Positions 5,396-22,388 of a DNA stretch of 22,388 bases are shown in pieces. Origin of the DNA: Candidatus Thorarchaeota archaeon (GTDB lineage: Archaea > Asgardarchaeota > Thorarchaeia > Thorarchaeales > Thorarchaeaceae); NCBI GenBank assembly GCA_048882045.1, contig JBHLRZ010000045.1, positions 1 through 22,388 of the forward strand, written 5' to 3'. Each line of letters begins with the position of its first letter. Position 1 is the stretch's first letter. The translations under genes were made by a program, and so were the position numbers. Under the pieces are notes generated by a model. The model had not been told where the DNA came from. It worked only from the letters and a program-made list of their open reading frames with translations, and did not search any database.

Positions 5396-5533
5396 TGAAT
5401 CAGCTCCATTTGGATTGCCGACCCACTTCATTTAACTTTGACTGGCTGAACGGAAAAAAGTTCACCACGGAGATGCTTATATGGCAATTTTGGGGGTTCG
5501 TAATAAGAGAACATTGTCTTAGGTGCGCGAATC

Positions 5534-5824: not shown

Positions 5825-5825
5825 T

Positions 5826-6605: not shown

Positions 6606-6653
6606 CTTCTGACCTCATGTCCTGACTGCATCAAAGGCAGAACTTCATCTATC

Positions 6654-8966
6654 TTATTTCTTTCCTCTCAGACCTGGAAACCAGTATTGGGTACTTTTGG
6701 AGTAGCTCTTCTGTTCCTTCGCGACTCCGTTTGATATCAGAAGCTCCAATGCGTTTCTTACTCTTTCCTCTTTCCAGCCAAGGTTGACTACTGCGTCTTC
6801 AATACTCAGGCGACCATCTTTCGTTGCGGCCAGGCTGAGTATCTCTTGGGGATCATCAGTCAAGGCGACTGGAACGAATTCAACCATGCGAGCTCCACCT
6901 TCCATGGTTGATAGTCCCTGAATCAGTCCCTCCTTTTCCATATCTTCTAAGAGGTCTTCTATCTCATCCGAATGAGTTCCCCATCCACTCTCATCCAAAC
7001 GTACCAAGAGTTCAGAGAATAGCATAATTCCGCCAAACTGCTTTGAATCGGCTGCCATCCTTAGGATATCGCGCCTCAAACCATCTGTTCTATCATCGCG
7101 CTTGAGTAATCTTTTAACCATCCCTGACTTCTTTTTGGCTTCTGCAATCCAAGACTCCGGCTCATAACCAAGTTCTGTCAAGAGCTCGACAAGGGCGGTT
7201 CGATAAGCGGGGATACTCAAAATAGTGCTCCCCTGATTCTCAAAGACTTCCCAGAGTCGTTCTCTAATCGAGTCCAAGCGTCTCGATCTATCTACTAATT
7301 CATCGAGTCGAACTGCAATCTGGTCTTCATGTGAGAGGGAATTGACAATTATTGGGATGGCCACATTACTTGTGGAAGTCAAGGTAAATTCAATCGTCTT
7401 ATCGAAGTATCCAGGGGCTACTACAACTCCTTCATAGTTGCTCATCGGTAATGAAACAACAATAGACCCTTTACTGTCAGATTTGGCTTGTAGAACTCCC
7501 AAGTCTAGTTCAGCATTTTCTAATGGTCTTCCGGCTTCATCCTGAATTTGAAACCTAACCCTACATAATGACTCGTCCGAGGTCACAGTCAGTTTTCTTC
7601 GCTTCAACTTGATCTTAGTTTCAGGAATTCCTGAGATGAGATCTTCAAGCTCTTTGATTAGTGGACGTTTGACTAGTCCATCTCCAAGGAGTGCTTTAGA
7701 ACCTTCCAGAATAGCTTCACGAGCCTCTTTAACTGACAACAAGTTATGAGTTTGAGACGAATCTCTGAGGAACTTCCTTAGAGCTACATCATTGTTTGCA
7801 CGTTCGCTAAGTAATGAAGCGACTGCACCGATTGCTCTGGTTGGAGTTTCAAACTCGTCAACGAAATCTCGCCGGCGACTCACTTTATCCCCCGTACTAA
7901 CCATCTGTGAGAGTGTGTAAATCTCGATTCCAAGTTGTCCTTTCTTCGAGAATCCAGCGAGGAAAAAGGGAATCATTATGAGAGTGCCTTTTGCATCTGA
8001 GTTTACAACAGAAAGTGGAACAGACAAGTCAGTCAGACTAGAAATCTGTTCCTGAATAGTTTTGTTAGCTGCTTGAACCTCGGCAAAGAAACCATCACGC
8101 TCCACTAGAAGTTCACGTGCTGAATCTTGAATATCAGCGAGGATTTCGTTTCGTTTGTCCTCATCTCGTTTGAGAGCCATCTTGCGAGATTCAATTGTAT
8201 TCCTAATTTCCTTGATTCTTGCTTTCTTCTTGTCTGAGGATGAAGTTTCTACAACCTTTAGTTCGGATTCCAGTTCGACAATCTGTTTCTCTAGAGATGC
8301 AATCCTTAGGTTCAATCGGGAAAGTGTTGGTGCAGATGTAGTTTCCTTGACACCTACTGTGTCCTCGACTCTAGTATTGATTATTTCTACGAGCTCAGAA
8401 ATAAGGTCATCAACTGAACTAATCACATCAACAGTTTCTCGCAGCAACTCTATAGATCTCATGAACTCCTTCTCTCCAAGGAGTCCGGATAGAGGAACTG
8501 CAAAATTCTCTATGCTGTTTCCCAGAGGTCTCTCGAGGAGCTGAGCTACTCCTCTTGACATCAGGCCACTCATCAGACCTAAGAGTGTTGAACGACTCGT
8601 ATTACGGAATGGAGTGATGATCTTTCGAGCACACTTGATTCCTTCCAGAAGATCACCAGTTCTCAAATCATCAAATGCAGAAGTGGCGTCGAACTTGCTA
8701 TGATGAGTCAATGATTCACTAGTAAGACCAAACAGCTCAACAAGAAAACTACGATTCTCAAATGGAGCAGGGACAATTACTACAGGCAGGTAACATTTGA
8801 GCATAAACTCGAGATCTCTACCATCTCTCTGCTCAATTGCTCGCATCACCATTCCAGCCATTACATAGTCTTCTGGGACAGCCTGTTCCATTGGCTGGCC
8901 TCCTGACAACTGGAGTCGCCTCGTAGCTGTTGCAGGTACAATGAGATTCCAGCGTTCAAAGTCCAT
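6654..8966 (-). CDS. Multidomain protein: N-terminal alpha/beta region with inserted coiled coil, beta-sandwich (carboxypeptidase-regulatory-like) domain, C-terminal EAP30/Vps22 (ESCRT-II)-like tandem winged helices
   Basis: C-terminus (PAYRTALVELLTELGYEP...GGIMLFSELL...FVPVALTDDPQEILSLA...NLGWKEERVRNALELLISNG...YWFPGL) follows the Snf8/Vps22 pattern. Heptad region about 8030-8400. QDEAGRPLENA...SDSKG...APGY beta-sandwich about 7340-7570. Start is ATG 8966 or ATG 8891 (GGAGG SD); the track's 9209 start overlaps the divergent gene. Confidence 0.8.
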   Translation of the reverse strand: MDFERWNLIVPATATRRLQLSGGQPMEQAVPEDYVMAGMVMRAIEQRDGRDLEFMLKCYLPVVIVPAPFENRSFLVELFGLTSESLTHHSKFDATSAFDDLRTGDLLEGIKCARKIITPFRNTSRSTLLGLMSGLMSRGVAQLLERPLGNSIENFAVPLSGLLGEKEFMRSIELLRETVDVISSVDDLISELVEIINTRVEDTVGVKETTSAPTLSRLNLRIASLEKQIVELESELKVVETSSSDKKKARIKEIRNTIESRKMALKRDEDKRNEILADIQDSARELLVERDGFFAEVQAANKTIQEQISSLTDLSVPLSVVNSDAKGTLIMIPFFLAGFSKKGQLGIEIYTLSQMVSTGDKVSRRRDFVDEFETPTRAIGAVASLLSERANNDVALRKFLRDSSQTHNLLSVKEAREAILEGSKALLGDGLVKRPLIKELEDLISGIPETKIKLKRRKLTVTSDESLCRVRFQIQDEAGRPLENAELDLGVLQAKSDSKGSIVVSLPMSNYEGVVVAPGYFDKTIEFTLTSTSNVAIPIIVNSLSHEDQIAVRLDELVDRSRRLDSIRERLWEVFENQGSTILSIPAYRTALVELLTELGYEPESWIAEAKKKSGMVKRLLKRDDRTDGLRRDILRMAADSKQFGGIMLFSELLVRLDESGWGTHSDEIEDLLEDMEKEGLIQGLSTMEGGARMVEFVPVALTDDPQEILSLAATKDGRLSIEDAVVNLGWKEERVRNALELLISNGVAKEQKSYSKSTQYWFPGLRGKK

Positions 8967-9066
8967 GGTGATACCTATGTTGAAGTCATGGGAACGCTTT
9001 TCATACTTTCTTATGGAGAATCCATTATCAATTTGAACGCGCCTGACAACCTGAGGAGTGAACGAA

Positions 9067-9414
9067 GTGAAAAGAGATGATCCAATTCTTCTACCAATCT
9101 GTAGTAAATGCAGGAAATACAAAGGAGTCGGATCATGCAACTGTAACGGTTCATCTGAGATGAAGAGCATTGTTACCAAATGTAGCCTGTGTGACAACGC
9201 AACTATCATCGAATGTGTGAGATGTGGTCAAGGATTCTGTCAGGTTCATGGATGGGAGGAAATTACAGGGCGCCTAACAAAATGGGACCAACGAATCGGA
9301 ACCTGTACAATCTGCAATCAATCAGTTTGCGAGAACTGCTGGCTTCTCGAGGATGATGGAAAAATAACATGTTTAGTCCATCATGAAGGACCTCCACATG
9401 ACTTAGAAGAGTGA
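9067..9414 (+). CDS. Zinc-finger protein with B-box-like Cys/His motifs
   Basis: CSKC...CNC, CSLC...CVRC...FCQVH, CTIC...VCENC...CLVHH. GTG 9067 lies 8 nt after GAGGAG; GTG 9058 is an alternative start. Confidence 0.78.
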   Translation: MKRDDPILLPICSKCRKYKGVGSCNCNGSSEMKSIVTKCSLCDNATIIECVRCGQGFCQVHGWEEITGRLTKWDQRIGTCTICNQSVCENCWLLEDDGKITCLVHHEGPPHDLEE

Positions 9415-9484
9415 ATTCAACCGCACCAATACATAACGGTCAAACATTTATGGACAAGCGTAACCTCAGATTATGTGGCGAGCC

Positions 9485-10600
9485 ATGCCAGAAGCGACTT
9501 TCGTAGTTCATCTAGATGATTTTCAAGGGTTCATTGTTAAACAGAGATACCCAAAGACCCTTGCATTAAATGAGAAGGTTCTCAATCTGATCTTCGTTGA
9601 GAAACAGGAGAGGAAAGAGAAGAACGAAACTCTTGCTGTGTCAGAGATAGAAGGTCTAAGAATTGCTACCTACAGTAACCCACAGTATCCAGGTTGGATG
9701 GTCTGTACATTACTCGAACCTGAAGAGGAAGTGGAGGAGCTCAGAGGTAGTCTATCAGGTTCAGGAAGACTCATCCTTGCACTAATGAGTGAGGACGATG
9801 AAGCGGTCAACCTAGAAGAGCTTGTTAAGAGTGGGAGCGTTCTGAAAGAGAAGAGTGAAGAACAGAATCTTGCGAGTATCTTTCTGACTCCATCTTCAGC
9901 CCTCCTTTTAGAACGAATGCAAGAAGAAGGTGTCGAGAAAGCAGCAAAACTGTCCATCTGGTTGAAGAACCAGGTCCAGGATGAGGTCGATCTAAGGGAA
10001 GCAATGGCACCCCTGATGAGTTCTGGGATAGTGAAGGTCGAACTAATAGGGAAGACTGCTGAAACGGTTTTTCTAGTCAAGGACTTGTTTGGCTATCGTG
10101 CTCCACCAGTTGAGTCAGTTTTGAAAGCTAAACACACTCATCCAACTATTGAACAAAAATACAGAGAGTTAGTAACTCAGTTCTTCTCTCCACCTCCACC
10201 AAATAAGGGTTACAACCCCACAATTCCAGTGAATGACCCGAATTCTCCAATTCTTGAAGACAGAGAGAAGATTTCTCGATTGATTGCAGATAGCCTGAAC
10301 TATATGGTTCTTGATACCCTCAGAGCAGAACCACTCACTGTCGCAGGTATCTCCGAGAAGACTGCATTGCCTAAGTCTTTAGTGATGAAGGTTCTATGGT
10401 CATTGGAAGCAGAGAAGGTTGTACTACGTTTCGAGGAGGAAGATGTTTGGGCTCTTCTGACCAATCCAAGAATTGAGTCCTTTGTTCCGGAATATGTCCT
10501 TCCAATGGTAGCCAAGAAGGTATCAGAGAAAGAAATAACACCTCAAGTAGCCCGGAGACATCTCGAACTCTTAATTCAGAATTGTGGTGAAGTACCGTGA
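9485..10600 (+). CDS. Longin/uDENN-like domain + two winged-helix domains (NPRL2-like architecture)
   Basis: N-terminal FVVHLDDFQGFIVKQRYP resembles the uDENN/NPR2 first beta-hairpin. Two wH-like units (LLLERMQEEG...LMSSGIVK; VLDTLRAEPLTVAGISEKT...LEAEKVV). Stop overlaps the GTPase start (GTGA). Confidence 0.75.
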   Translation: MPEATFVVHLDDFQGFIVKQRYPKTLALNEKVLNLIFVEKQERKEKNETLAVSEIEGLRIATYSNPQYPGWMVCTLLEPEEEVEELRGSLSGSGRLILALMSEDDEAVNLEELVKSGSVLKEKSEEQNLASIFLTPSSALLLERMQEEGVEKAAKLSIWLKNQVQDEVDLREAMAPLMSSGIVKVELIGKTAETVFLVKDLFGYRAPPVESVLKAKHTHPTIEQKYRELVTQFFSPPPPNKGYNPTIPVNDPNSPILEDREKISRLIADSLNYMVLDTLRAEPLTVAGISEKTALPKSLVMKVLWSLEAEKVVLRFEEEDVWALLTNPRIESFVPEYVLPMVAKKVSEKEITPQVARRHLELLIQNCGEVP

Positions 10601-11448
10601 TTAGAAGTGTCTACGTGCTTGGCGACCAAGGAAATATGTTGTATTCGAAGGATTATGCCAAGAGTGATTCAAAGGCGAACCTTGTAGAGTTCTTGATCAA
10701 TCTAACACATTTTCTGAAAACTGTGGACTTGGAGGAAAAGACAGAGTTCATGAATGTCGCTGTTTCACGAATCTTCTTTGCAAAGAGAGACACGTTCACT
10801 TTCCATTTTGTGGCTGACAAAGCAGATGATGCAACTCAGATAGAGGAGAAGATGGAACAACTGGTTGACTCATTCATGCGTGATTATGCCAACCTGGCTC
10901 TCGCAAATCAACCACTTGACGGATTTGACGAAAAAGTCGATGAGATCGCTGTCACAATGGTTAAGGTGGCCATTCTGGGATTTGCAGGCGTGGGAAAGAC
11001 AACAACACTTCATCTCTTGCGTGGCGAAACACTTCCACTTGTGCATGACCCAACAATTGGTGTCAGCATCAAGAAGCTGCCTGAAGAAGTTGAGAACGCA
11101 AACATAGTGCTTTGGGATCTTGCAGGTCAATCCCGCTTCAGCATCCTATGGGCGAAGATGATTGCCAATGCTCAGGTTGTCATCATCGTAACAGACAGCA
11201 CCCTGGAGAATGTTTTGAGGAGTAAGAAACTTGTCACTCTTGTCAAGGATGAGGTTCCTGATGCAAAGGTCATTGGGATTGCAAACAAGCAAGACCTTCC
11301 AACAGCTTTGACTCCAGAGAGAGTAGGTCAGATTCTTGGGATTCCCACCTACGAACTTGTGGCTATTGATATCTCTTACAGAGACCGTCTTATTCAGATT
11401 ATTCGTAGAGCTATCCTCGAAGGCAAAGCTGAAGCAAAAGCAGCATAA
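10597..11448 (+). CDS. Longin-domain + Arf-like small GTPase fusion
   Basis: N-terminus MIRSVYVLGDQGNMLYSKDY resembles longin/sigma-adaptin. G1 GFAGVGKTT, G2 PTIG, G3 WDLAGQ, G4 NKQDLP. Confidence 0.9.
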   Translation: MIRSVYVLGDQGNMLYSKDYAKSDSKANLVEFLINLTHFLKTVDLEEKTEFMNVAVSRIFFAKRDTFTFHFVADKADDATQIEEKMEQLVDSFMRDYANLALANQPLDGFDEKVDEIAVTMVKVAILGFAGVGKTTTLHLLRGETLPLVHDPTIGVSIKKLPEEVENANIVLWDLAGQSRFSILWAKMIANAQVVIIVTDSTLENVLRSKKLVTLVKDEVPDAKVIGIANKQDLPTALTPERVGQILGIPTYELVAIDISYRDRLIQIIRRAILEGKAEAKAA

Positions 11449-11551
11449 ACTCGAGACGTATTATGCGTTGAAGAGTGGGATATGCATCAAGGCAAAGGTT
11501 AAGAGTTAAACAGAGTGAGTTATCGCAACAGCCGCCTATAGGTGACTAACA

Positions 11552-12145
11552 ATGTCCTTTGATTTAGAAGGTATAATGGCCAAATTGAAAGAAATAGAAG
11601 GCTTCGCTGAGAACGTAACGCAAACCAAGAAGCTTGCAGATGACTTGGCTGAGAACTTCGCAAAGATGAAGACTAATATCAACCAAGCAATCAATGACGG
11701 CTTTACAGAGATAGCCAATCAGATTGAAGCACTCAGACAGAACATGGAGAAAATGGAAAGCGTAAAGACAGATGCCCCAAAAGTTGACGCTCCGGCCCCG
11801 GCAGTAACCCCAACACCGGCGCCCGCGCCGGAGGTTACACCAGCCCCAGAACCAGCTCTTGAGGTGGCACCTGAGCCTACTCCAGCACCTTCTCCTGAAC
11901 CAACACCAGCGCCTGAGCCAACCCCAGCACCCGAGCCAGCTCCCGCAGTGGAGGCAGCTCCTGCAGAGGGTGACGATCAGATGGATTTCCTTCTACAGCA
12001 GAAGGACAGACTGAAAGCTCAGTTGACTGATTTGCGGTTCGACTATATGCGTGGATACATCCCAGAGGACGAGTACAAGACCAAAGAATCTGAGCTCGAT
12101 ACACAGCTGGAAGATGTTGACAAGCAGATTGCTGCTCTGAAATAG
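11552..12145 (+). CDS. Coiled coil + Pro/Ala-rich linker + C-terminal SHOCT/steadiness-box-like helical hairpin
   Basis: N-terminal heptads, PAPEPT repeats, C-terminal LTDLRFDYMRGYIPEDEYKTKESEL. SD AGGTGA upstream. Confidence 0.78.
   Translation: MSFDLEGIMAKLKEIEGFAENVTQTKKLADDLAENFAKMKTNINQAINDGFTEIANQIEALRQNMEKMESVKTDAPKVDAPAPAVTPTPAPAPEVTPAPEPALEVAPEPTPAPSPEPTPAPEPTPAPEPAPAVEAAPAEGDDQMDFLLQQKDRLKAQLTDLRFDYMRGYIPEDEYKTKESELDTQLEDVDKQIAALK
11790..11965 (+). repeat. Coding low-complexity tandem repeats (PAPEPT-type linker)
   Basis: Imperfect repeats such as ccagcacctXctcctgaaccaaca / ccagcgcctgagccaacc / ccagcacccgagcca. Confidence 0.7.
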
Positions 12146-12166
12146 ACAGGTTTTCATAGAGTATTT

Positions 12167-12228
12167 GGCTCGCACTCTGGACTCTTCGAGTCTTAAGAAT
12201 AGAGTGCGAGGCCTACTTCTTCTTTTCT
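12167..12228. terminator. Long hairpin followed by a T-rich tract between convergent genes (putative terminator or structured 3' UTR)
   Basis: CTCGCACTCT (12169-12178) is the exact reverse complement of AGAGTGCGAG (12201-12210). Inner GACTC/GAGTC stem; followed by TTCTTCTTTTCT. Confidence 0.45.
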
Positions 12229-12284
12229 CTAAGTTTTCATTTCTCGAATATATGTGCTGACAAGTTTCTGTCTTGGGAGGTCCA

Positions 12285-13220
12285 TCACTCTTTCTTCTTA
12301 GTTGACCCTGATTTTGTTGCCTTCTTTGCAGTTGTCGTCTTGGCTGACTTTTTCTCTTCCGCCTTCTTTGATTTAGTCGTTTTCTTAGGAGAAGCTTTCT
12401 CTTCGGCTTTCTTCTTTGTAGTAGTCTTCTTAGCTGGTTTCTTCTCTTCGGCTTTCTTCTTAGCGGAAGTCTTCTTTGCTGCAGCCTTCGTCTTTGGCTC
12501 TTCTTTCTTTTCCTCTTTCTTCTTGGAGGGTGCTTTCTTCTTAGGAGCTTCCTTTTCCTCAGCCTTCTTCTTCTTAGTTGTCTTCTTGGCTGGCTTCTTC
12601 TCTTCTGCCTTCTTCTTAGCCGGAGCTTCCTTCTTCGTTGGGGCTTTCTTCTTAGATGGAGCCTTTTTCTTCGGTTTTTCTTCCAGTTCAGGTTCGGGAA
12701 TGTGTTGTGGTTCAAGAGGTTCGACAATGACCTCTGGTCGTTCATCCTTTCGCTCCTTCTTTTCACCAACCTCTCTTCGTTTCCAAGCGAGTTTACTTGG
12801 TTTAACTACACCGGGAGTTCCAGCGGCAAGGAGTGCGATATCCATCTCCTCAGTGATGATAGGTTGTTTGGGAACACTTGAAGCAATCTCTTCGAGGGCA
12901 TCAGCTACCATGATAGGAGCTCCTTCCTGTCTCTTCTCGAGCTCAGCAGGAATAGTATAGACAACGAATCCTCCCTCCCTGATATAAGGGACTACAACAC
13001 CTTCAGCTTCTTTCTCTCGTAGAATCTTTCGTGCTATACTCATGCGGATATTGAAACGATTGGCAAGATCAAAGCTAGTGACAGATTTTGCTTTCTGCAA
13101 GTATTCATCAATACTTGACAATGTATCGGCTTTTGGAACTGCATCTCTGATGATTCGCTCTGTCTTTGCGGCTGATTTGCCCCACTTTTTACGACTGATA
13201 TTAATTACTCTCCTAGGCAC
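12285..13220 (-). CDS. rps25e: 30S ribosomal protein eS25 (S25e) with a ~210-aa C-terminal extension, Lys/Ala/Glu-rich in its distal part
   Basis: N-terminal ~95 aa (RKKWGK...VTSFDLANRFNIRMSIARKILREKEAEGVV...VVYT) match the eS25 winged-helix pattern. Tail of KKKAEEKK repeats. Confidence 0.85.
   Translation of the reverse strand: MPRRVINISRKKWGKSAAKTERIIRDAVPKADTLSSIDEYLQKAKSVTSFDLANRFNIRMSIARKILREKEAEGVVVPYIREGGFVVYTIPAELEKRQEGAPIMVADALEEIASSVPKQPIITEEMDIALLAAGTPGVVKPSKLAWKRREVGEKKERKDERPEVIVEPLEPQHIPEPELEEKPKKKAPSKKKAPTKKEAPAKKKAEEKKPAKKTTKKKKAEEKEAPKKKAPSKKKEEKKEEPKTKAAAKKTSAKKKAEEKKPAKKTTTKKKAEEKASPKKTTKSKKAEEKKSAKTTTAKKATKSGSTKKKE
12290..12680 (-). repeat. Coding repeats KKKAEEK(K/E)xxKK / KKKAP(S/T)KKK in the eS25 tail
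   Basis: Repeated ttctcttc(g/t)gc(t/c)ttcttct units on the + strand. Confidence 0.7.
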
Positions 13221-13312
13221 CTGTAACTAGGTTCATCGCGGAAAACCTGGGTTTGACTTTTAAAGATGCTCATTGCTCTATTTTCATTGATGCTGTAGGA
13301 GCTAAATATCTG

Positions 13313-13975
13313 ATGATTTCAGTAGCTGATATCGACCATATAGCCAAGACCCTTGTGTCCCTAGTTTACCCAGAACTTCAGGAGAGGGAAATTGTTCTAT
13401 CATGTGGACGGACTTCTTGTTATGGTCAGGTTAGTTGGAGGGATGAAGACAACAAGATCAGCATTAGCTTAAATGAGAGCGTCAGAATGTGGCACCCAGC
13501 AGGTATCACAGGCCTTCTTTCTCATGAGTTAAGTCATCCATCACAAAAAGGTTCAGGTTTCAAGGAATGGAAGACTGATGAAGATGTGATCATGAGAGGA
13601 TTGGGACCATATCTTGCCATTGAAAGACTACAAACTGGTAAGTACGATGACCATGTAATTCAGAATGGCAAGGATAGATACTTTGGGTATCGAATGATTA
13701 GAAAAGCCTTGACTCCAATTGAAACTGAGAATTTAGACATACTTATGTTTCAACTAGCCCTCAAACCATCTCAAGTGAATCAACATGCTTGGTTCAGCCA
13801 CGATGTCGTAATCCATGAGCGTGAGGGAGTATCGTCGGTTGTTGTTGAAGGTGAACATTTCATACTTCCAAAAGGATTGGTTGAGCCAGATATCAAGACC
13901 GTAAATCGAAATGGCATTGTTTTTGTATATGCTGAGGAAACTCTCATAGGGCAATACACTGAGTCGGATATCTAG
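13313..13975 (+). CDS. Putative zincin-like metallopeptidase (HExxH)
   Basis: GLLSHELSH motif preceded by YG...ISISL strands. ATG 13313 with AGGAG upstream. Confidence 0.65.
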   Translation: MISVADIDHIAKTLVSLVYPELQEREIVLSCGRTSCYGQVSWRDEDNKISISLNESVRMWHPAGITGLLSHELSHPSQKGSGFKEWKTDEDVIMRGLGPYLAIERLQTGKYDDHVIQNGKDRYFGYRMIRKALTPIETENLDILMFQLALKPSQVNQHAWFSHDVVIHEREGVSSVVVEGEHFILPKGLVEPDIKTVNRNGIVFVYAEETLIGQYTESDI

Positions 13976-15261
13976 TCAGACAAATCCTTACGCTTTTTTA
14001 TGATGAGTTTTTGAGAGAGGGAAACATCACTGGCTGGAGGAATGTCTTCCGAAACCACACATCCTGCAGAAATGATGCTATTCTCGCCAATACGTGTTGC
14101 AGGATATATGGATGCATTGACCCCGATGTCTACATTGTCACCAACAATTGCACCAAACTTCCTCTGAGGTATCTCGACAGTTTCAGTTTCGTTCTTCAGA
14201 AATAAGGGATCCTTTCCAGGTCGCCAGTTCCACAGTTGTGCTCCTGCTTCGATACATGTATCCGCTCCAATGATGGAATCAGCCAAGTAGGTCATTCTCC
14301 CCACATTGACTCTGTCAAAGACCATCGAGTTCCTCATTTCCACAGCGTATCCTATCTTGACACCGTCACAAAGACTGCTGTAGTCGCGAATAAGCGAGTT
14401 ATTACCTACATAGACTCGTTTTCCAATATATATTGGTCCTCGAAGGGTTGTGTTCGGTCGGATTATACTCCCTTCACCGATATGCACGGATCCTTCAATG
14501 ACAACGCTTGGATGAACATCTGCAGATTCTGCTATGTAACTACCCTTACCAAGTAATCGTCTGTCCATGACGATGCGATTTGCCTTGAGAATATCCCAAG
14601 GCCAAGTGAACTCAGCCCATTCCTTCTCCCAGACTGCTGCAGATACTTGTCGTCCATCTGCCATAAAATGTTCAAAGGCCTTTTCCATTGCAAGGTGTTT
14701 TTCCAGAAATGGTAGGATGTCTGTTGAGAACACTGAAACTCCTGCTACTGCATAATTGCTAACGTATCGCTCCGGCCCACCCTTCTCAACTAGTTTCTCA
14801 ACAACACCATTAGATCCAATCTTGACTGTACCAAACTGCTCAGGATTAGATACTAGAGTGACTAGCATTGTGACGTCACTCTTCATGGTTTCATGGTTAG
14901 AGAGGGTTCTGGAAACCATTTGGGGTTCAACTAGTACATCACCATTAACCAACAGGAATTTCTTTTCACCATCCAATTCATCACGAGCAGTGAGGATTGC
15001 ATTTTCAACACCCTCTTGTTTGTGTTGAATCACATACCTAATCCTGACATCTTGGTCACCACCCATCTGAAAGTGGTCGATGAGTTCCTCTCTTCCGTGG
15101 CCCACAACTATGATGATATCGCGAATTCCATTCTCCATAAGACTGTCAATGATATACTGAAGAACCGGTCTTCCTGCGATCATCAGCATCGACTTCGATC
15201 TCTTTGCTGTAAGTGGTCTCAACCGTTGACCTTCTCCAGCTGTCAGAACAAGAGCTTTCAT
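13972..15261 (-). CDS. glmU: Bifunctional sugar-1-phosphate nucleotidyltransferase / acetyltransferase (archaeal GlmU-like)
   Basis: LTAGEGQRLRPLT...K, NGD, EK, PWDILKAN, left-handed beta-helix hexapeptide repeats, KFGAIVGD. Confidence 0.88.
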   Translation of the reverse strand: MKALVLTAGEGQRLRPLTAKRSKSMLMIAGRPVLQYIIDSLMENGIRDIIIVVGHGREELIDHFQMGGDQDVRIRYVIQHKQEGVENAILTARDELDGEKKFLLVNGDVLVEPQMVSRTLSNHETMKSDVTMLVTLVSNPEQFGTVKIGSNGVVEKLVEKGGPERYVSNYAVAGVSVFSTDILPFLEKHLAMEKAFEHFMADGRQVSAAVWEKEWAEFTWPWDILKANRIVMDRRLLGKGSYIAESADVHPSVVIEGSVHIGEGSIIRPNTTLRGPIYIGKRVYVGNNSLIRDYSSLCDGVKIGYAVEMRNSMVFDRVNVGRMTYLADSIIGADTCIEAGAQLWNWRPGKDPLFLKNETETVEIPQRKFGAIVGDNVDIGVNASIYPATRIGENSIISAGCVVSEDIPPASDVSLSQKLIIKKRKDLSD

Positions 15262-15326
15262 GATTCGTCACACACGTCTCCATCAGTATAATGACGCATA
15301 AAACTATTGGCTGTTGTGCAGTCGCA

Positions 15327-16052
15327 CTATGAGTCAATGAGACGGAAGTAGATTCGTCTTTTTCCAGCACCAACATTCTTGGACTTGCCTATCTGAATAC
15401 CTCCAACCTCACTTGTATTCTTGACATGCGTTCCAGCGCAGGATGCCGCGTCGAAGTCACCAATTATCAAGACTCGAAATTCCTTTACTGACTTTGGAAC
15501 CATGTCTAAGTATCGAGTCTGATAGCCGCGATCGTTTAGATAATCGATGGCTTCCTTGCGTGGCAGGAATCGAATTTCGACATCGATGTTCTCAGCCAGC
15601 TTTGCATTGACTGCAGTTTCAACATCCCGTTTCATTTCCTCATCGAATGACTCTAACGGTGAATAGTCAGCTCGACTCTCACCTGGTTTGATGTTATTCC
15701 CCACGGTTTCGACACCATATTCGAGCTGAAGATGTCGAGAAAGTACATGTTGGGCTGTGTGGAATCTCATGCACTCATACCTGAACTCCCATTCAAGTTC
15801 ACCATGTATCTTCGTTCCTTCGGGAAATGGCTGTTCATTAAGCCTATGTCGAATCTCGCCTTCGATCTTGCGAACCTCTGAAACATTGACTGTTCGATCA
15901 CCGTCTGAAAGTGTACCTCTGTCACTGGATTGCCCGCCCCCTTCAGGATAGAATGCTGTCTGGTCCAACACAACATAGTCATCTCCAGCTGAGGTGACTC
16001 TAGCATCAAAGGATCGAAGATAGTTATCTCTCATATGAAGAAGATCTGTCAT
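15327..16052 (-). CDS. alaXM: Alanyl-tRNA editing protein AlaX-M
   Basis: LDQTAFYPEGGGQ, HxxxH (HTAQH), CAGTHV; 241 aa; SD AGAGG. Confidence 0.93.
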   Translation of the reverse strand: MTDLLHMRDNYLRSFDARVTSAGDDYVVLDQTAFYPEGGGQSSDRGTLSDGDRTVNVSEVRKIEGEIRHRLNEQPFPEGTKIHGELEWEFRYECMRFHTAQHVLSRHLQLEYGVETVGNNIKPGESRADYSPLESFDEEMKRDVETAVNAKLAENIDVEIRFLPRKEAIDYLNDRGYQTRYLDMVPKSVKEFRVLIIGDFDAASCAGTHVKNTSEVGGIQIGKSKNVGAGKRRIYFRLIDS

Positions 16053-16064
16053 CCTCTAGTTCTC

Positions 16065-16589
16065 CTAGCCAGTGGTATGACCACGCAGATTGTTCCATTC
16101 ATCAACAGCAAGCTGCTTTGCCTTCTCTAACTCCACACCAGTAAGGTCAACATCAGGGGTATCAGCGGCAGCATCTATGATTTCACGTACAGATTCTTCA
16201 GTGGATTCCTCCATAAGCCCGTCGAGGATAGCACCGACAGTATCATCACTGACTCCACGCTCCTTCAGAAACCTTGCTAGCGGAGTATATGATACAGGAA
16301 CATATCCACTATCTGTAGAGGGCTCTAATCCAATAGCGTTCATTTGAACCTCGAATTTCTTAGTGATGATTTCTTCACGGGTCTGAACTGATGGTTCCAT
16401 GATTTCTTTCTCTTTATCCACTTCCATCAGCATTCGTCGCATCTGTCTAACCACTGGCATTCCTGCTGCTGTTTTTGTGCCTGATCTTCGTTTCGCGGCA
16501 ACTAGGACAATAACCATTGCAATGGCAAACAAGAAAATCGGACTAAGCAGGAAATCAGTGAGAAGGTTGATGATATCGGTTGGTTGCAT
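16065..16589 (-). CDS. Hypothetical protein with a single N-terminal membrane anchor
   Basis: Hydrophobic LLSPIFLFAIAMVIVLVAA followed by KRR. ATG 16589 with GAGGGG upstream; co-oriented with its neighbours. Confidence 0.72.
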   Translation of the reverse strand: MQPTDIINLLTDFLLSPIFLFAIAMVIVLVAAKRRSGTKTAAGMPVVRQMRRMLMEVDKEKEIMEPSVQTREEIITKKFEVQMNAIGLEPSTDSGYVPVSYTPLARFLKERGVSDDTVGAILDGLMEESTEESVREIIDAAADTPDVDLTGVELEKAKQLAVDEWNNLRGHTTG

Positions 16590-16674
16590 TCTGAACGCCC
16601 CTCTGATGCAAAGTGACACCAGTGTGATTTGACCACTGCGTAATCGCGACTATAAGGTTTCTCCTGATATGTTG

Positions 16675-17802
16675 TCATCCTGAGAAGTGGTCTGCAATCT
16701 CTAAATAGATGTCAACCGCTTGATAGAGCTCCTCCAGACGAATGAATTCATCAGGCTGATGGGCTTGTTCAATCGATCCTGGTCCACAGATTACATGCTG
16801 GATACCTACCTTTGGTTGAAGGACAGAGCAGTCTGTTCCATATGTAGCGGTAGCCAGTTTAGGAGATCGACCTAGAACCTTCTCAACAGCTGCTTGGGCG
16901 ATGGAAACAATCTCTGCATCTGCTGGAGTTAGCACAGCAGACATACCATGCACATATTCAACCTTTACTCGATCAGAAAGTCCAGCAGATTCAAGCCTTG
17001 AGTTCATGGTTGCGAGAAGTGAGTCCGAATCCTGCCCTAGGACAGTCCGCATGTCCAAAAGTGCTTCACAAGAATCCGGAACAACATTGATTTTTATTCC
17101 ACCCCTTATCACTCCAATGTTCATAGTAGGAGTTCCTAGCATTTCATGCTCATCGTACGAGTATGGTTCCCCGGTCAATACATTTAGAGCATCCATGCAA
17201 GCATTGATTGCATTGACTCCTTCCTCAGGTCTAGAACCATGAGCTGACTTTCCTTTTGAAACAACTTTGCTCCAGAACATGCCTTTCTCACCAATCAAGA
17301 TTCCAAGGCTTGTTGGTTCAGCGCAGACTCCAAACTTGATTCCCTTGAGTAGACCGCTTGCTGCGACCTCCTCAGCACCAGAGCAACTACTCTCCTCATC
17401 GGAAGTTGCTAGCATCACCAGAGGTTGGTCATGTTTCGCTTCAGTGTACAGGATGAGGGTTTCTGCTAGGGCAGCCATTGGACCTTTCATGTCAGCTGAC
17501 CCACGACCATACAAATTGCCATCCTCGATCTCCGATGCGAATGGATCATGGGACCAGTTCTCAACATCCCCTATCGGCACAGTGTCGAGGTGACCATGCA
17601 CCACTAGTTCCCCCTTCTCTCCCTCATGGCTTGTGAAGATTAGGTTGGGACGTTCATTTGGACCTACAGAGGTACAGGAGATTCCATGGGCTTCCATGTG
17701 GTCCTTCAGAACTTTGGCTGCATCCGCTTCATATCCTGGAGGATTCTCTGATTTAGCTGATATAAGATCCTTCAGAAGTTTGAGGACTCTAGACTCATTC
17801 AT
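16675..17802 (-). CDS. M20 family metallo-hydrolase (ArgE/DapE-like deacylase)
   Basis: HGHLDTVP, YGRGSADMKG, SDEE, AEPT, AHGSRP, GGIKINVVP, AHQPDE. ATG 17802 with GGTGG SD. Confidence 0.92.
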   Translation of the reverse strand: MNESRVLKLLKDLISAKSENPPGYEADAAKVLKDHMEAHGISCTSVGPNERPNLIFTSHEGEKGELVVHGHLDTVPIGDVENWSHDPFASEIEDGNLYGRGSADMKGPMAALAETLILYTEAKHDQPLVMLATSDEESSCSGAEEVAASGLLKGIKFGVCAEPTSLGILIGEKGMFWSKVVSKGKSAHGSRPEEGVNAINACMDALNVLTGEPYSYDEHEMLGTPTMNIGVIRGGIKINVVPDSCEALLDMRTVLGQDSDSLLATMNSRLESAGLSDRVKVEYVHGMSAVLTPADAEIVSIAQAAVEKVLGRSPKLATATYGTDCSVLQPKVGIQHVICGPGSIEQAHQPDEFIRLEELYQAVDIYLEIADHFSG

Positions 17803-17864
17803 TGGATGTTCCACCAAAAGTAGTCCGGTAACCCAACGCTATGAAGGTTCCTGATTAATCACAA

Positions 17865-17879
17865 ACACCTTTTAGGAAA
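17865..17879 (+). promoter_or_regulatory. Putative TATA-like promoter of the TPR-nitrilase gene
   Basis: ACACCTTTTAGGAAA is 13/15 identical to the ACAACTTTTAGGAGA motif upstream of both sRNAs. Confidence 0.45.
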
Positions 17880-17985
17880 CTAACCCACTATAACCTGTAG
17901 CAGTTGATAAGGTGGATATCGACCTTTCAGAAGAGTCTGGATTCTGGATTCATACATTGGTTGAGTTTGTTAGGTTCGGAGGAAG

Positions 17986-20900
17986 ATGAAAAAGGGAAAA
18001 AGCGAGAATCTTTCAGAGAGGAAAGACGTTGGGGAGATGGATTACGATTGGGTAGAAATAATCAAGCTTCACAAACAGGAGGCAGAGTCCAATCTGGAAA
18101 TGAAAAATATGGAAGAATCTGCTGTTGCATACAAGAAGCTTGGATATGCTTGTGCTCAGTTTGCAGAAACGGTTGATACTGCAGATGAAAATGTAGGCCA
18201 TACCAAAAATGCTGTTGATGCTTTCAGAAAAGCTGCGACACTCTATAAACAGACAGGCAAGAAGCCGGAGGAATTTGAATGCATTGGAGAAGCCTTCTTT
18301 TTCAATGGGTTAATAGCTGGGTCCAATATGGAAGGAAAGAAGGCGTTTAGCAAATCTTATGAGCAATTCATTAAATCAAGCGACCTCTTTACCAAGGAGA
18401 ATGATCAAGAGGGTCGAGCGCGGACTCTGAGTCGTGCTGCGTTGGCGTCATTCTATCTAGTTACTCAATATAGTGACAAACTAGAGATTGAACAGCTTAT
18501 TCAAGAAGGTATAACCATTGCAGGAGAATCTTGGAAACTTTCAAACAATGTTGGAAATGTTCAATCTCTTGCTGAATCATTATACGCTGAATTTTGGCTA
18601 TGTTGGGCGCATATGCTTGTTGCACCTTATAGATGGGATGAGAATTGGAAGGAATACAACAGGAAAATTCTATTGAGGTGTGATGAAAGTATAAAAGCTA
18701 CTGAGGATTGCGACAATCCTCTATTCATTAGTATGGTTCACCTTGCAGCTGGTACCCTATACTACTTCTTTGGATTTAATTTCATAAAGGATGAAAAAGA
18801 GCAGAGAGAATACACCGAGAAAGGATTTCAGTTAGGGGAGAAGGCTGTAGTCTTCGCAAAGAGAGCGAATAATAAAATTTTGATATTATCTTCACTATGG
18901 TGGTTGAACTGGAACGCCCTATCTACAGGAAGACACGAGTACCTCCAGAAACAAATATTCGAAGACATCTGGATTATGGAAGAGATTGGAAGAATATATG
19001 CAAACTCAAACAGCTTTTGGTTTCATTCCGGAAGAGGCATGCCCGCCTTCTGCTATGCAAACTTGGCTCGAATGAGTTTTTTCACAAGTACTCAAAGGAA
19101 ATCTTTTGCCGAGAAGGCAATTGAACATATCATGGAGGGTTTGAAGAAGTTTGCCTTCAGACCAGCAATTACCTGGCAATATCAGATGTTAACATGGGCA
19201 CATTCACTGCTATCTACTCTTGCTACTACAAAAGATGAGCGGAATCAACACGCACAGAAAATGCTTCAATATGCCAGACAGGGTGAAAAAATCGGGGAAG
19301 AATACGATGGTGGATGGGCTCGAGCCGCTGGGTACTCTTCCACCTATGGAGCCTACAAGACTCTTGCAGACATGGCACAAAACGAAAAAGAAAGAATCAA
19401 GCATCTATCAGCTGCAGTAGATGCTGCTACAAAGTATAATCAACATTCAGTGGAAAGCCGCACTGGCATCGTAGCAGCCCAAGTGCGGCTAGGGCTTCTC
19501 TTCGAAGAGCTTGGTAAATTAACGACGAATGTCAAACCGCTTAGAAAGGCAAAGGAGACATTTCTTGGAGTAATCAAGGAGAGTCGTGAGAGGAGATATC
19601 ATTTCTATGAAGCTGCTGGTCACGAATATACTGCACATATCGAAGATCGACTTGGCAACCATATTGCTTCAGCTGAACACTACGAAAAAGCTCAGGAGGC
19701 CCATACTAAGTCTTTGAAAACAATTGACTTCAAACCTTTGAAAGAGAGAGTTAAGGAGAAAATAGACTACGCTCGAGCATGGAACATGATTGAGAAGGCT
19801 AAGGCCCATCACAGGATGTCAGATTACCAAAAAGCCAAGGAAGATTATGAGAAAGCTTGTGAAATTTTGAAAGAACTACCAAGCTATGATTATGAAGCAT
19901 CCTACTTCGCAGCCTGGGGTCTGCAGGAAGAAGCTGAACAACTTAGTAAACAGGAAAATCATGAGCAGGCTTTGGAGAGATATGAAGCAACTAGGAGGAG
20001 CTTCGATAGCGCGATAAAATCACTAGAAGAAACCTCCACTTCTTTGGAAAACAGATGGGAAAGAGAAAGAATCGAGAAACTCAAGAAAGTTGCTAAGGTG
20101 AGAATGAACTACTGCTCCGGTAGAGCAAATATCGAAAGAGCACGAATACTAGGAAAGCAGGGTGACCACCTAGCAGCTGCAGAGAGATTTGCCTCAGCGG
20201 CTTCTGAGTTTAGCGACGTTCTCACTCAATTCAAAATCAAAGCGGAACGTAAGGAATTAGAAGCTGTATACAACCTCTGCAGAGCCTGGGAGAGCATGGA
20301 GCTTGCAGAGAACTATGATGACGCAGACAAATTCGCAGAAGCAGCAAGCCTATTCACCAAAGCCAGTAAGCTGTTCACTGATACCAAGCTGAAACTGCTA
20401 GCTACAGGCAACTCAGCCTTTTGTAAGGCTTTAGAACACGGGTGCAAATTTGATGAGTCAACTGAAACCGATGTCAAAGCACTACTTTATCCAAAGATCA
20501 AGACGATACTTAGAAAGGCAGCATCTGCCTATCGGAAAGGGGGTCACGATGGCGGAGCTGATTGGGCTCTGGCAACATCTAGCTATTTCGATGCGACATG
20601 GCACTTTATCAAAGCGGATGAGGAGCTGGATATTGACGAAAGGAAGAAATTCCTAAGAATCGCGACTAAATATCTGAAGTCAGCGGCTGAACTCTTCAGT
20701 AAATCGGGTTACAAGCACAAAGAGAGAGAGATTTTAGGTCGCCTAGAAATGGTAGAGAAGGAAGAGAGTATTCTAGTCTCCGCATTAGACATAATAATAG
20801 AACCATCTATCTCTAGAAGCACAGTAGGTATTGTCGCCCCTTCTTGTCCAACAGAAACCAGTCTCCCTCCAAGAATAGGTGAAGTTCGTCAGTTCACCGA

Positions 20901-21810
20901 AAGTGCAACAATGGTCAGAGATGAAGCCAGTCAGAGAAAATACGAACTCATCTACAAGAACCTACTCAAAGAACACTCAAACGTCCAGAGAACTGAGTAC
21001 AGAGTTGGCATCGCCCAGATAGGAGTTTCCAACACAAGCGACATTCTAAACGAATTCTATGAGATGAAGGCAGATGGCTTTCTAGGTCTTAGGCATGATA
21101 AAGTAGATGCAGTAAGATCCAAAGTCAAGAGCATGATAGAATTCGCTCAAAGAGAAGGAGTCAATATCCTACTCTTCCCGGAAATGACCATCGACCTCAA
21201 CTACAAGGAATTGCTTGAAGAAATAACTCATCAGGCTGAGATTTACGGAATGTACATAATACCAGGTTCGTACCATGATGATAATACAAAACAGAACCTC
21301 TGTGTGGTCGTAGGACCAGACGGAATCCTTTGGAATCAGGAGAAGCACATTCCAGCTACCATTCACTATAAAGGTGAAAGGTTCACTGAGAAAATAGGAA
21401 TTGGAGCACTCCCAAGGAGAACGTTCATTTGTGATACAGAGTTTGGGAGAATAGCAATTGTCATATGTCGAGACTTTCTGGACATGGACCTAAGGGTGGA
21501 GTTAAAGAACTTTGAACCTCCAGTGGATATAGTTTTCAACCCAGCATTCACACCAGTCACAGCAGACTTCAAAGCAGCACATTTTGATGCCCGTAGGTCT
21601 ATCTACGCCTATTGCTTCTTCGCCAATGTCGCTGAATTTGGAGATTCTCTCATTTACACACCTGAGAAAGAACGTGTCGAAAGGAGTCTGCCATCAAAGG
21701 AAGAGGGTCTAATCTACAAGGATGTACACCTTTTCCAACTTCGTTCAGAGCGTAGAAAATGGGAAAAGCAGCAGGAAAATCAAAGGTCGTTTATACAAAG
21801 CACAAGATGA
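17986..21810 (+). CDS. Large TPR/SNAP-like helical-repeat protein with C-terminal carbon-nitrogen hydrolase (nitrilase-family) domain
   Basis: About 950 aa of Ala-rich helical repeats (AAEHYEKA-, AKEDYEKA-, AAERFASA-type). C-terminal RVGIAQ...LLFPEM...IIPGS...QEKH...ICRDF...ANVAEFGDS with E-K-C triad. GGAGG SD at 17978. Confidence 0.88.
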   Translation: MKKGKSENLSERKDVGEMDYDWVEIIKLHKQEAESNLEMKNMEESAVAYKKLGYACAQFAETVDTADENVGHTKNAVDAFRKAATLYKQTGKKPEEFECIGEAFFFNGLIAGSNMEGKKAFSKSYEQFIKSSDLFTKENDQEGRARTLSRAALASFYLVTQYSDKLEIEQLIQEGITIAGESWKLSNNVGNVQSLAESLYAEFWLCWAHMLVAPYRWDENWKEYNRKILLRCDESIKATEDCDNPLFISMVHLAAGTLYYFFGFNFIKDEKEQREYTEKGFQLGEKAVVFAKRANNKILILSSLWWLNWNALSTGRHEYLQKQIFEDIWIMEEIGRIYANSNSFWFHSGRGMPAFCYANLARMSFFTSTQRKSFAEKAIEHIMEGLKKFAFRPAITWQYQMLTWAHSLLSTLATTKDERNQHAQKMLQYARQGEKIGEEYDGGWARAAGYSSTYGAYKTLADMAQNEKERIKHLSAAVDAATKYNQHSVESRTGIVAAQVRLGLLFEELGKLTTNVKPLRKAKETFLGVIKESRERRYHFYEAAGHEYTAHIEDRLGNHIASAEHYEKAQEAHTKSLKTIDFKPLKERVKEKIDYARAWNMIEKAKAHHRMSDYQKAKEDYEKACEILKELPSYDYEASYFAAWGLQEEAEQLSKQENHEQALERYEATRRSFDSAIKSLEETSTSLENRWERERIEKLKKVAKVRMNYCSGRANIERARILGKQGDHLAAAERFASAASEFSDVLTQFKIKAERKELEAVYNLCRAWESMELAENYDDADKFAEAASLFTKASKLFTDTKLKLLATGNSAFCKALEHGCKFDESTETDVKALLYPKIKTILRKAASAYRKGGHDGGADWALATSSYFDATWHFIKADEELDIDERKKFLRIATKYLKSAAELFSKSGYKHKEREILGRLEMVEKEESILVSALDIIIEPSISRSTVGIVAPSCPTETSLPPRIGEVRQFTESATMVRDEASQRKYELIYKNLLKEHSNVQRTEYRVGIAQIGVSNTSDILNEFYEMKADGFLGLRHDKVDAVRSKVKSMIEFAQREGVNILLFPEMTIDLNYKELLEEITHQAEIYGMYIIPGSYHDDNTKQNLCVVVGPDGILWNQEKHIPATIHYKGERFTEKIGIGALPRRTFICDTEFGRIAIVICRDFLDMDLRVELKNFEPPVDIVFNPAFTPVTADFKAAHFDARRSIYAYCFFANVAEFGDSLIYTPEKERVERSLPSKEEGLIYKDVHLFQLRSERRKWEKQQENQRSFIQSTR

Positions 21811-21840: not shown

Positions 21841-21857
21841 ATACAACTTTTAGGAGA
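21841..21857 (+). promoter_or_regulatory. Putative promoter of sRNA 1
   Basis: ATACAACTTTTAGGAGA. TTTTA begins 29 nt before the predicted sRNA 5' end; identical 17-mer precedes sRNA 2. Confidence 0.6.
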
Positions 21858-21876
21858 AAGTCACTATTTTCTTCAC

Positions 21877-21952
21877 GTGGCATTTCTGTGAGGCGGTTAC
21901 CCCTGGCTGAGCTTCGGCGATGACGAGCCAAGAGCAAGCTGAGATCTGCCAC
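21877..21952 (+). ncRNA. Box C/D 2'-O-methylation guide sRNA (copy 1)
   Basis: Terminal stem GTGGCA/TGCCAC; box C GTGAGGC (21888); 12-nt guide GGTTACCCCTGG; D' CTGA (21907); GC-TTCG-GC hairpin; C' ATGACGA (21920); 12-nt guide GCCAAGAGCAAG; D CTGA (21939); T-rich tract after. Confidence 0.85.
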
Positions 21953-21968
21953 TCTTTCTTCTCAATCA

Positions 21969-21985
21969 ATACAACTTTTAGGAGA
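21969..21985 (+). promoter_or_regulatory. Putative promoter of sRNA 2
   Basis: ATACAACTTTTAGGAGA, identical to 21841-21857. TTTTA begins 28 nt before the predicted 5' end. Confidence 0.6.
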
Positions 21986-22003
21986 CACAGGAGATATTTT
22001 CCT

Positions 22004-22079
22004 GTGGCTAATCTGTGAAGCAGTTACCCCTGACTGAGCTCAAGCAATGAAGACACGGTGAGCAGCTGAGATTTGCCAC
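22004..22079 (+). ncRNA. Box C/D 2'-O-methylation guide sRNA (copy 2)
   Basis: Terminal stem GTGGCTAATC/GATTTGCCAC; box C GTGAAGC (22015); 12-nt guide AGTTACCCCTGA; D' CTGA (22034); GC-TCAA-GC hairpin; C' ATGAAGA (22047); 12-nt guide CACGGTGAGCAG; D CTGA (22066); T-tract after. Confidence 0.85.
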
Positions 22080-22161
22080 TCTATTTTTCGTTTCAACAGA
22101 AGTAGTAATGGCCAAGACCTTGTGGGAGGAGAGAGATAGGACACCCGGTCCTTTTGGAGGA

Positions 22162-22329
22162 CTAGACCTCGGACTTCAGAACGAGTTTGTTCTTCTCAAT
22201 CGAAATCCCGAATTCCTGCCCTTCGTCATCAAACAGGGATACATCCTCTTCCTTCATGAACACCTTCACGGTCTTCCGCAATTTCCTGGAAGGGATCTTT
22301 CCCATTGGGATGACATAGGTCTCGGCCAA
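22162..22329 (-). CDS. Small hypothetical protein, 55 aa (MAETYVIPMGKIPSRKLRKTVKVFMKEEDVSLFDDEGQEFGISIEKNKLVLKSEV)
   Basis: Translated by hand; below the apparent ~60-aa cutoff of the ORF track. TTG start with GGAG upstream, TAG stop, protein-like composition. Confidence 0.62.
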   Translation of the reverse strand: MAETYVIPMGKIPSRKLRKTVKVFMKEEDVSLFDDEGQEFGISIEKNKLVLKSEV

Positions 22330-22388
22330 TGTTTCTAACTCCGACGGATGCGGTAGTGGTGCGACAGTCTAAGAGGGATGCAAGACTT

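Follow-up and report, generated by a model that had tools for sequence, protein, structure and literature searches.

To our knowledge, the nitrilase effectors of DRT1, UG5 and CARF-nitrilase systems have only recently been recognised as immune outputs, and their substrate is still unknown. The same kind of nitrilase is found in the protein described here, P0001, which is encoded at 17986..21810 (+) of a 22,388-nucleotide stretch of DNA from a Candidatus Thorarchaeota archaeon (positions 1 to 22,388 of contig JBHLRZ010000045.1, assembly GCA_048882045.1); this whole stretch is referred to below as the window. In P0001 the nitrilase is carried by a chassis free of reverse transcriptase (RT) and nucleoside triphosphatase (NTPase) domains, and in relatives of P0001 it trades places with TIR and phosphoesterase domains, an exchange that constrains the likely target of the nitrilase. 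The gene is an open reading frame (ORF) of 1274 codons plus a stop codon, and its product matches the database protein P0002 at 100%. The source genome (G000; 3.6 Mb, 93% complete), of which the window is contig C45, is, like all genomes used here, a metagenome bin.

In DRT1, the nitrilase is the effector, and its activity depends on oligomerisation and is directed at an unknown substrate (PMC13275509). The nitrilase domains of DRT1 form a tetramer core and are architectural in its filaments, their catalytic residues are needed for defence, and conserved residues at the C-terminus of one protomer form a cap over the active site of its neighbour (PMC13275509). P0001 shares with DRT1 and UG class 3 (9yfd, PMC13275509; UG5 RT-nitrilase, PMC13436386) the layout of a large polypeptide with a helical-repeat region, a C-terminal nitrilase and a conserved extreme C-terminus. 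There are also clear differences, as P0001 lacks the RT, and hence DNA-adduct regulation, and has as its partner region a TPR-like solenoid of ~926 residues; the hosts are Asgard archaea rather than bacteria, and the similarity is remote (profile E 3.6e-4).

Avs/STAND NTPase-TPR and TPR-CHAT systems resemble the present family in using a repeat solenoid as the presumed sensor, in their swappable effectors, which include TIR, and in being single-gene systems of patchy distribution. Unlike Avs/STAND proteins, however, members that bear a nitrilase, TIR or Metallophos module lack an NTPase switch, and in them the effector stands at the C-terminus, after a disordered linker that is conserved; KaiC/AAA modules occur only in distant scaffold relatives, at the C-terminus, and the Asgard scaffold is far more conserved than that of a typical Avs sensor. 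The CARF-nitrilase fusions of PADLOC (PDLC01989), which we take to be candidate ancillary effectors of type III CRISPR systems, likewise join a sensor domain to a nitrilase output, but P0001 has no CARF domain, and only positions ~159-392 of the 457 in that model, its nitrilase part, are matched. With the omega-amidase Nit2 and the amidase PH0642 (2w1v, 1j31, 6ypa) the nitrilase domain has the spacing of the catalytic tetrad in common, with Foldseek E values of 7e-12 to 6e-11 and a template-modelling (TM) score of 0.54-0.68; those proteins, in contrast, are stand-alone metabolic enzymes of ~270 residues, 19-20% identical to the domain, which has invariant motifs of its own. The solenoid is similar in overall shape to Ctr9, Ski3, the TPR subunits of IFT-A and TTC7, with no evidence of orthology. 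Defence catalogues at present do not list this Asgard scaffold family. An initial annotation of the window, made from the sequence before this analysis, had not recognised the architecture as a characterised system; we agree, as no description was found with PADLOC, and full-text literature searches for Asgard together with nitrilase, TIR or TPR gave no paper on it.

Architecture and active site of P0001

P0001 consists of a solenoid, a linker and a nitrilase-superfamily domain. Residues 1-926 are predicted by AlphaFold2 (AF2) to form an all-alpha solenoid of 38 helices, with a mean predicted local distance difference test (pLDDT) score of 89 and a predicted TM score (pTM) of 0.82 in a model of residues 1-960 built on an alignment of 38 sequences. 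The N-terminal third of this solenoid (residues 1-400, 17986..19185, +) is folded into helical hairpins with pLDDT >90, and compared with 107 full-length homologs it has a mean identity of 32-49% and the highest column entropy; it is therefore variable, and may be a recognition surface. The remainder (residues 401-926, 19186..20763, +) is conserved, and residues 720-926, the best-conserved stretch of the scaffold, are retained in short forms of ~875 residues and in distant relatives. In Foldseek searches of the PDB, the best matches of the solenoid are the long TPR scaffolds Ctr9, Ski3 and IFT-A subunits (E 4e-10 to 1e-7, identity 9-13%), with TM-scores of 0.2-0.35 that make the resemblance generic, and no specific structural match to the scaffold was obtained beyond such TPR solenoids.

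The initial annotation had described this region as a TPR/SNAP-repeat array, of which only the first half stands. All Pfam TPR models remain below their cut-offs on P0001 (TPR_12, 22 bits vs 30.1), and alpha-SNAP (PF14938) gives no Pfam match at E<=1; SNAP matches are borderline and confined to some homologs, for example P0134 (27.9 bits vs 25). The designation TPR-like is thus established by the predicted structure, and SNAP is not. The Pro/Ser linker noted at the same time is real: residues 927-975 (20764..20910, +), rich in Pro, Ser and Thr and carrying the motif PSISRSTVGIVAPSCPTETSLPPRIGEVRQF, are predicted to be disordered (pLDDT 40-58, in the model that extends to residue 960).

The divergent nitrilase-superfamily (C-N hydrolase) domain comprises residues 976-1274 (20911..21807, +) and includes the single significant Pfam domain of P0001, CN_hydrolase (PF00795), at residues 1042-1254 with 32.6 bits against a gathering cut-off of 23.2. 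The catalytic Glu, Lys and Cys lie exactly where the initial annotation had put them, namely E1066 in LLFPE (21181..21183, +), K1120 in QEKH (21343..21345, +) and C1161 in ICRDFLDMDLR (21466..21468, +), and the second Glu of the tetrad is E1135 in RFTEKI (21388..21390, +), 15 residues past the Lys and at E160 of the domain alignment. All four residues are invariant in 23 aligned homologs that span 45-85% identity. The same alignment reveals invariant motifs specific to the family, namely CRDFLDxDLR, DARRS (usually DARRSIYAY) and FIQST(R/K). The last of these is the extreme C-terminal tail, FIQSTR in P0001 (21790..21807, +), in which F-I-Q-S-T is invariant and the final residue is R or K in 23/23 sequences; preceded by a long helix, it has no ordered structure in the AF2 monomer model (pLDDT <50), and by analogy with DRT1 it is a putative in-trans lid. 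Conservation across the protein is highest in the nitrilase domain (mean identity 69% to the 107 full-length homologs), and residues 1161-1200 within it reach a mean of 94%.

A nitrilase fold, the alpha-beta-beta-alpha sandwich, is predicted for the domain by AF2 (pLDDT 80, pTM 0.85). Foldseek returned 213 PDB matches to this model at E<=1e-3, and the top matches listed are all nitrilase-superfamily enzymes, the nearest being Nit2 (2w1v, E 7e-12), the PH0642 amidase and beta-ureidopropionase (E 7e-12 to 4e-10, identity 16-20%). At the level of sequence, the best match of the single sequence to a nitrilase-superfamily protein in the PDB has E ~0.05, and the family profile matches Nit2 at 5e-5 and DRT1 (9yfd) at 3.6e-4, the alignment with DRT1 running from the Cys motif to the C-terminus by way of ICRDF/ICYDA and EFGDS/EYGGS. 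No NCBIfam model matches P0001 at E<=1, and for the nitrilase part a protein atlas offered unnamed bacterial clusters only, which are uninformative.

The affinity of the domain was judged by the scores of hidden Markov models (HMMs) with internal controls rather than by a tree. PADLOC models of defence-associated nitrilases match it well (CARF_nitrilase, 9.8e-18; RTasNitrilase, 1.1e-11), and among 23 family members the CARF-nitrilase and RT-associated nitrilase models each match 23/23, the UG5-nitrilase model 22/23 and Drt1a 10/23, with CARF-nitrilase the top-scoring HMM throughout (E 1e-17 to 2e-18). The internal control is provided by five ordinary CN_hydrolases of the same genome, which score 104-213 bits with Pfam, compared with 36-47 for its three TPR-fused ones (36 for P0001), and which give one PADLOC match only, at E 8.6e-4. 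On these matches and the negative housekeeping controls, the domain probably belongs with or nearest to the defence-associated nitrilases and not with housekeeping amidases. The earlier proposal that the ICxDF and GDS motifs resemble the RT-associated clade gains support from the DRT1 alignment and the PADLOC matches and is weakened by Nit2, whose match to the profile is about as good as that of DRT1, so that the clade affinity rests on the HMM scores. The absence of RT and NTPase domains that had been described earlier is confirmed, since Pfam, PADLOC and NCBIfam find neither of these (P-loop NTPases included) nor a CARF domain in P0001; neighbouring ORFs have no RT domain, and the window has no CRISPR-Cas genes.

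Module exchange and accessory distribution

An exhaustive search of 1.84 billion cluster representatives yielded 675 clusters (50% identity) that match the scaffold, the nitrilase or both, and in many of them the scaffold (residues ~1-960) occurs without the nitrilase. Close scaffold homologs, 43-50% identical over ~950 residues, end in different C-terminal modules: TIR_2 in P0134 and also at L018:4440-7802, Metallophos, a calcineurin-like phosphoesterase, in P0127 and at L017:6788-10711, a Cys-rich Zn-finger in P0129, and a Roadblock/longin-like module of ~165 residues in P0132 and P0135, the last being a lead only, from atlas scores of 0.88-0.90. P0136, P0143, P0176 and P0192 are labelled TIR because their tails cluster in BLAST with that of P0134, which is positive with Pfam. 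A distant subgroup of 23-31% identity carries a beta-sandwich-like domain, alone or with winged helix-turn-helix (wHTH)-like, KaiC-like or AAA/STAND-like modules behind it.

Nitrilase-, TIR-, Metallophos-, Zn-finger- and Roadblock-type relatives all share the linker motif, PSIS(R/S)ST.GI.AP.CP.ETS.SPR..E..QF.EE, and in the alignment of scaffold relatives the switch from one module to another falls directly behind it. The motif might serve for cleavage, for docking or as a hinge. A looser version of it is kept in the scaffold relatives of 23-31% identity.

Exchange is also evident from a maximum-likelihood tree of the scaffold only, in which the Metallophos and Zn-finger types are each sister to a different nitrilase type (Shimodaira-Hasegawa-like approximate likelihood-ratio test, SH-aLRT, 97 and 98, respectively). 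A single clade of nitrilase bearers is rejected by the approximately unbiased (AU) test (delta lnL 83.7, p=0.006), although the tree is a quick LG+G4 inference that drew a long-branch warning and the test came only after inspection of the tree. The exchange of effectors on homologous TPR regions, which the initial annotation had anticipated, is thus found with TIR, Metallophos, Zn-finger, Roadblock-like and ATPase modules. One locus, upstream of a UbiA gene (76% identical), is shared by two related genomes, G121 and G065; L021 (G121:C33) has three nitrilase-type genes at 6255-18021, and L018 (G065:C66) has at 4440-11777 a TIR-type gene followed by a nitrilase-type gene. This locus offers a natural pair for the study of module replacement. 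The 271-aa gene 3' of these arrays was considered as a partner and rejected, as it is the UbiA prenyltransferase that marks the synteny.

The nitrilase module itself appears from its sequence contexts to be mobile between partners, since it also occurs with canonical TPR_12 repeats, with a Ras/Roc GTPase and a protein kinase (P0150), with beta-helix/NosD repeats (P0173, P0175), with alpha/beta-hydrolases (P0201, P0207) and with AAA_16 (P0148). P0150, a metagenomic protein of 785 residues, has a ROCO-like architecture with a nitrilase output. Two shorter paralogs in the source genome (837 and 851 residues) combine a canonical TPR_12/MalT-like array with the same nitrilase module, 58-64% identical to that of P0001. 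The 837-aa paralog (contig C12, L005:7232-9745, +) is bracketed by orphan copies of the 3' end of rps19, at L005 7059-7142 (28 residues, 75% identity) and 9849-9905 (19 residues, 100%), the intact rps19 being at L005 10787-11197 (-); this paralog is carried as cargo in a swappable cassette.

The family is large and rich in paralogs, and nearly all of it is Asgard. Full-length homologs of ~1265-1290 residues and 51-82% identity are named Thor-, Loki-, Hod- and Hermodarchaeota, the nearest ones carrying the database names Thorarchaeota and Promethearchaeota, and several Loki-type genomes have tandem arrays of two to three long paralogs of ~50% identity. When species-representative genomes were scanned with the nitrilase profile, 274 relatives were found, the best 80 of which are almost all Asgard. 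The three exceptions (L092, L097 and L128) are in bins labelled Nanopelagicaceae bacterium, Bathyarchaeia and Bathyarchaeota, with modules 68-70% identical to that of P0001, and are more likely binning errors than transfers. A second profile search, of a large protein database, yielded chiefly further fragments of this family and nothing more distant.

Within Asgard archaea the distribution is patchy. Any match at all is found in 62/201 sampled genomes and, in the genus of the window, in 7/14 other genomes, of which only G137 has a full-length copy (55% identity); in G146, of the same genus, the last 324 residues are present at a contig end as a fragment of 83% identity. Among full-length copies the closest, at 82% identity, is that of G167, a genome from another genus.

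The locus itself tells the same. The gene for P0001 lies between an M20 peptidase gene and a C/D-box small RNA (sRNA) gene, next to a block of NTP-transferase, AlaX, orf184 and M20 peptidase genes that is kept across Thorarchaeaceae, M20 being present in 42/45 genomes. Among 29 other M20 loci examined, only those of G167 and G206 have the long gene adjoining M20; in G167 it is also between M20 and the sRNA element, in the opposite orientation, and in G206 it is followed by the contig end. The sequence adjacent to M20 is homologous to the tail of the window (~21870-22388) in at least 15 further genomes of the Thorarchaeaceae, three of which share its genus; there a conserved element of ~75 nt, which is the C/D-box sRNA gene, lies ~100 nt from M20 and is followed by a small ORF. 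As the gene stands between M20 and the sRNA in G000 and G167 only, it is variable cargo there, outside the conserved block. The gene is therefore an insertion in conserved synteny and accessory rather than core, and the patchy, non-core distribution foreseen in the initial annotation is what these genomes have. No conserved partner gene could be found, since the flanks vary between genomes and are housekeeping, and no hallmarks of a mobile element (integrase, flanking repeats) were seen at the insertion. In G206, the interval from M20 to the beginning of the long gene contains a 27-nt fragment of the sRNA element (L025 1377-1403); the full copies in G000 are on the other side of the gene. This fragment could be a trace of the entry of the gene into the site.

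Possible function and competing explanations

Relatives with TIR, phosphoesterase and other modules on the same scaffold make this look like a one-gene sensor-effector family. With a probability of about one half, we consider P0001 to be a sensor-effector in one polypeptide, free of an NTPase and belonging to a modular family specific to Asgard archaea, which most likely serves in conflict or defence, in an abortive-infection-like manner, or in a stress response. For its mechanism of action we infer the following. The variable N-terminal part of the solenoid would bind a trigger, probably a protein or peptide, and the conserved C-terminal part, together with the conserved flexible linker, would hold the effector. 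This effector would be a divergent amidase of the nitrilase fold, active only as an oligomer like other nitrilases and DRT1, and the conserved FIQSTR tail may complete or cap a neighbouring active site in trans, as suggested by DRT1. The solenoid would control assembly or access, so that assembly or release driven by the trigger switches hydrolysis on. The target would be a C-N bond in an essential small molecule, and our favoured guess is an amide- or amine-bearing nucleotide or cofactor, for example NAD+; a nucleotide- or NAD-type substrate is the most economical guess because TIR and metallophosphoesterase domains occupy the same position in sister proteins. A more specific form of this proposal, put forward only tentatively, is that these proteins are Asgard-specific, NTPase-free immune receptors, in which the solenoid would detect an invader, or a host factor that has been perturbed, and by way of the conserved flexible linker would control exchangeable effectors (nitrilase, TIR, metallophosphoesterase) that attack the nucleotide or NAD pool.

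If this is true, the nitrilase would be the archaeal counterpart of the DRT1 and CARF nitrilase effectors and a tractable route to their chemistry, and the family would be an instance of an immune architecture of repeat scaffold plus TIR in those archaea that are most closely related to eukaryotes among the ones known. The family provides a simple one-gene system for assay, and bears on signalling architectures of repeat scaffold and TIR in archaeal relatives of eukaryotes.

Several observations, however, weigh against a role in conflict. No known defence or mobile-element genes were seen linked to the gene, whose flanks are housekeeping; PADLOC, run on scaffold relatives, recognises neither the scaffold nor the sister proteins; and viral contigs contain no relatives. 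For an arms-race sensor the scaffold varies unusually little, with 51-82% full-length identity across Thor-, Loki-, Hod- and Hermodarchaeota, and several sister modules (Roadblock/longin-like, Zn-finger, wHTH-like and beta-sandwich) are not toxin-like. The comparable profile matches of Nit2 and DRT1 and the reservations about the scaffold tree and its AU test must be counted here as well.

Some of these points lead to a different explanation, namely that the family is a non-immune scaffold of cell-biological signalling or regulation, the solenoid being a stable docking platform like Ctr9, Ski3 and TTC7 and the C-terminal module an output or adaptor, which might, for example, deamidate a protein or metabolite in an Asgard circuit linked to small GTPases. 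High conservation and a fixed length of ~1275 residues across Asgard classes would suit such a platform, as would the old tandem paralogs of ~50% identity kept at the locus shared by two genomes, the housekeeping flanks and the lack of PADLOC matches on the scaffold. The non-toxin-like sister modules, Roadblock/longin-like (the lead mentioned above), Zn-finger and wHTH-like, point to signalling too, the KaiC/AAA ATPases can be added to them, and P0150 joins the same nitrilase to a Ras/Roc GTPase and a kinase. The structural neighbours are eukaryotic scaffold proteins, but this likeness is generic (TM <= 0.35). Moreover, TIR and defence-type nitrilases are typical conflict effectors, one paralog is found in a swappable cargo cassette, and the gene is patchy even within a genus, with a polymorphism of insertion and absence at its locus, all of which speak against a signalling scaffold. 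We regard this explanation as the strongest of the alternatives and yet rather unlikely; if it is true, Asgard archaea would have a new class of scaffold proteins whose outputs are enzymatic.

It might also be thought that P0001 is a metabolic amidase or nitrilase, for detoxification or nitrogen salvage, with a TPR region used only for assembly, localisation or chaperone contacts, as the domain passes the Pfam CN_hydrolase threshold with an intact tetrad, its nearest solved folds (Nit2, PH0642 amidase, beta-ureidopropionase) are metabolic, and hydantoinase A/B and M20 peptidase genes are among its neighbours. M20 and the genes next to it are, however, core and syntenic without the gene for P0001, sequence matches to metabolic enzymes are weak (best profile E 5e-5) or, for NCBIfam, absent, and the genome already has its five ordinary CN_hydrolases with far higher scores. 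TIR, Metallophos and ATPases in the same scaffold position of relatives make no sense on a metabolic pathway, and we therefore hold a metabolic role to be improbable. Even less credit can be given to a catalytically silent module, in which the nitrilase fold would be an oligomerisation core only. The tetramer core of the DRT1 nitrilase domains (PMC13275509) would be a precedent, and the most conserved block (1161-1205) overlaps a region of low confidence in the monomer model, probably an interface; but the E-K-E-C tetrad is invariant in 23/23 sequences of 45-85% identity, and defence by DRT1 needs the nitrilase catalytic residues (PMC13275509), which makes such silence highly improbable.

Small RNA genes and neighbouring genes

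Directly downstream of the gene, two tandem C/D-box sRNA genes occupy 21841-22096 (+), with cores at ~21877-21952 and ~22004-22079, as recognised from the layout of boxes and stem: a terminal stem GGCAG...CTGCC encloses boxes C (GATGA), D' (CTGA), C' (GATGA) and D (CTGA). Across 14 Thorarchaeaceae genomes the D' guide, GCAGTTACCCCTG, hardly varies, and the D guide has two variants, CCAAGAGCA and ACGGTGAGCA, one of each being present in the window. A search of the window with Rfam gave nothing at the gathering threshold and only a weak match to sR17 (E 0.76). A CRISPR array 3' of the gene was considered and rejected, because the two tandem units of ~127 nt at 21841-22096 are these sRNA genes.

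The other genes of the window include an archaeal-type GluRS, an AlaX-like protein, the M20 peptidase and hydantoinase A/B, together with three eukaryote-like genes near that of P0001. The first of the three encodes an 851-aa protein (6654-9209, -) whose C-terminal region is EAP30/Vps36-like and narrowly misses the Pfam cut-off (24.9 vs 26.8 bits), and the second an Arf-family GTPase with an N-terminal extension of ~120 residues (10597-11448, +). The third is a 311-aa ORF (12285-13220, -) in which only residues 10-89 are an S25e domain and whose length may be inflated by a mechanical start call.

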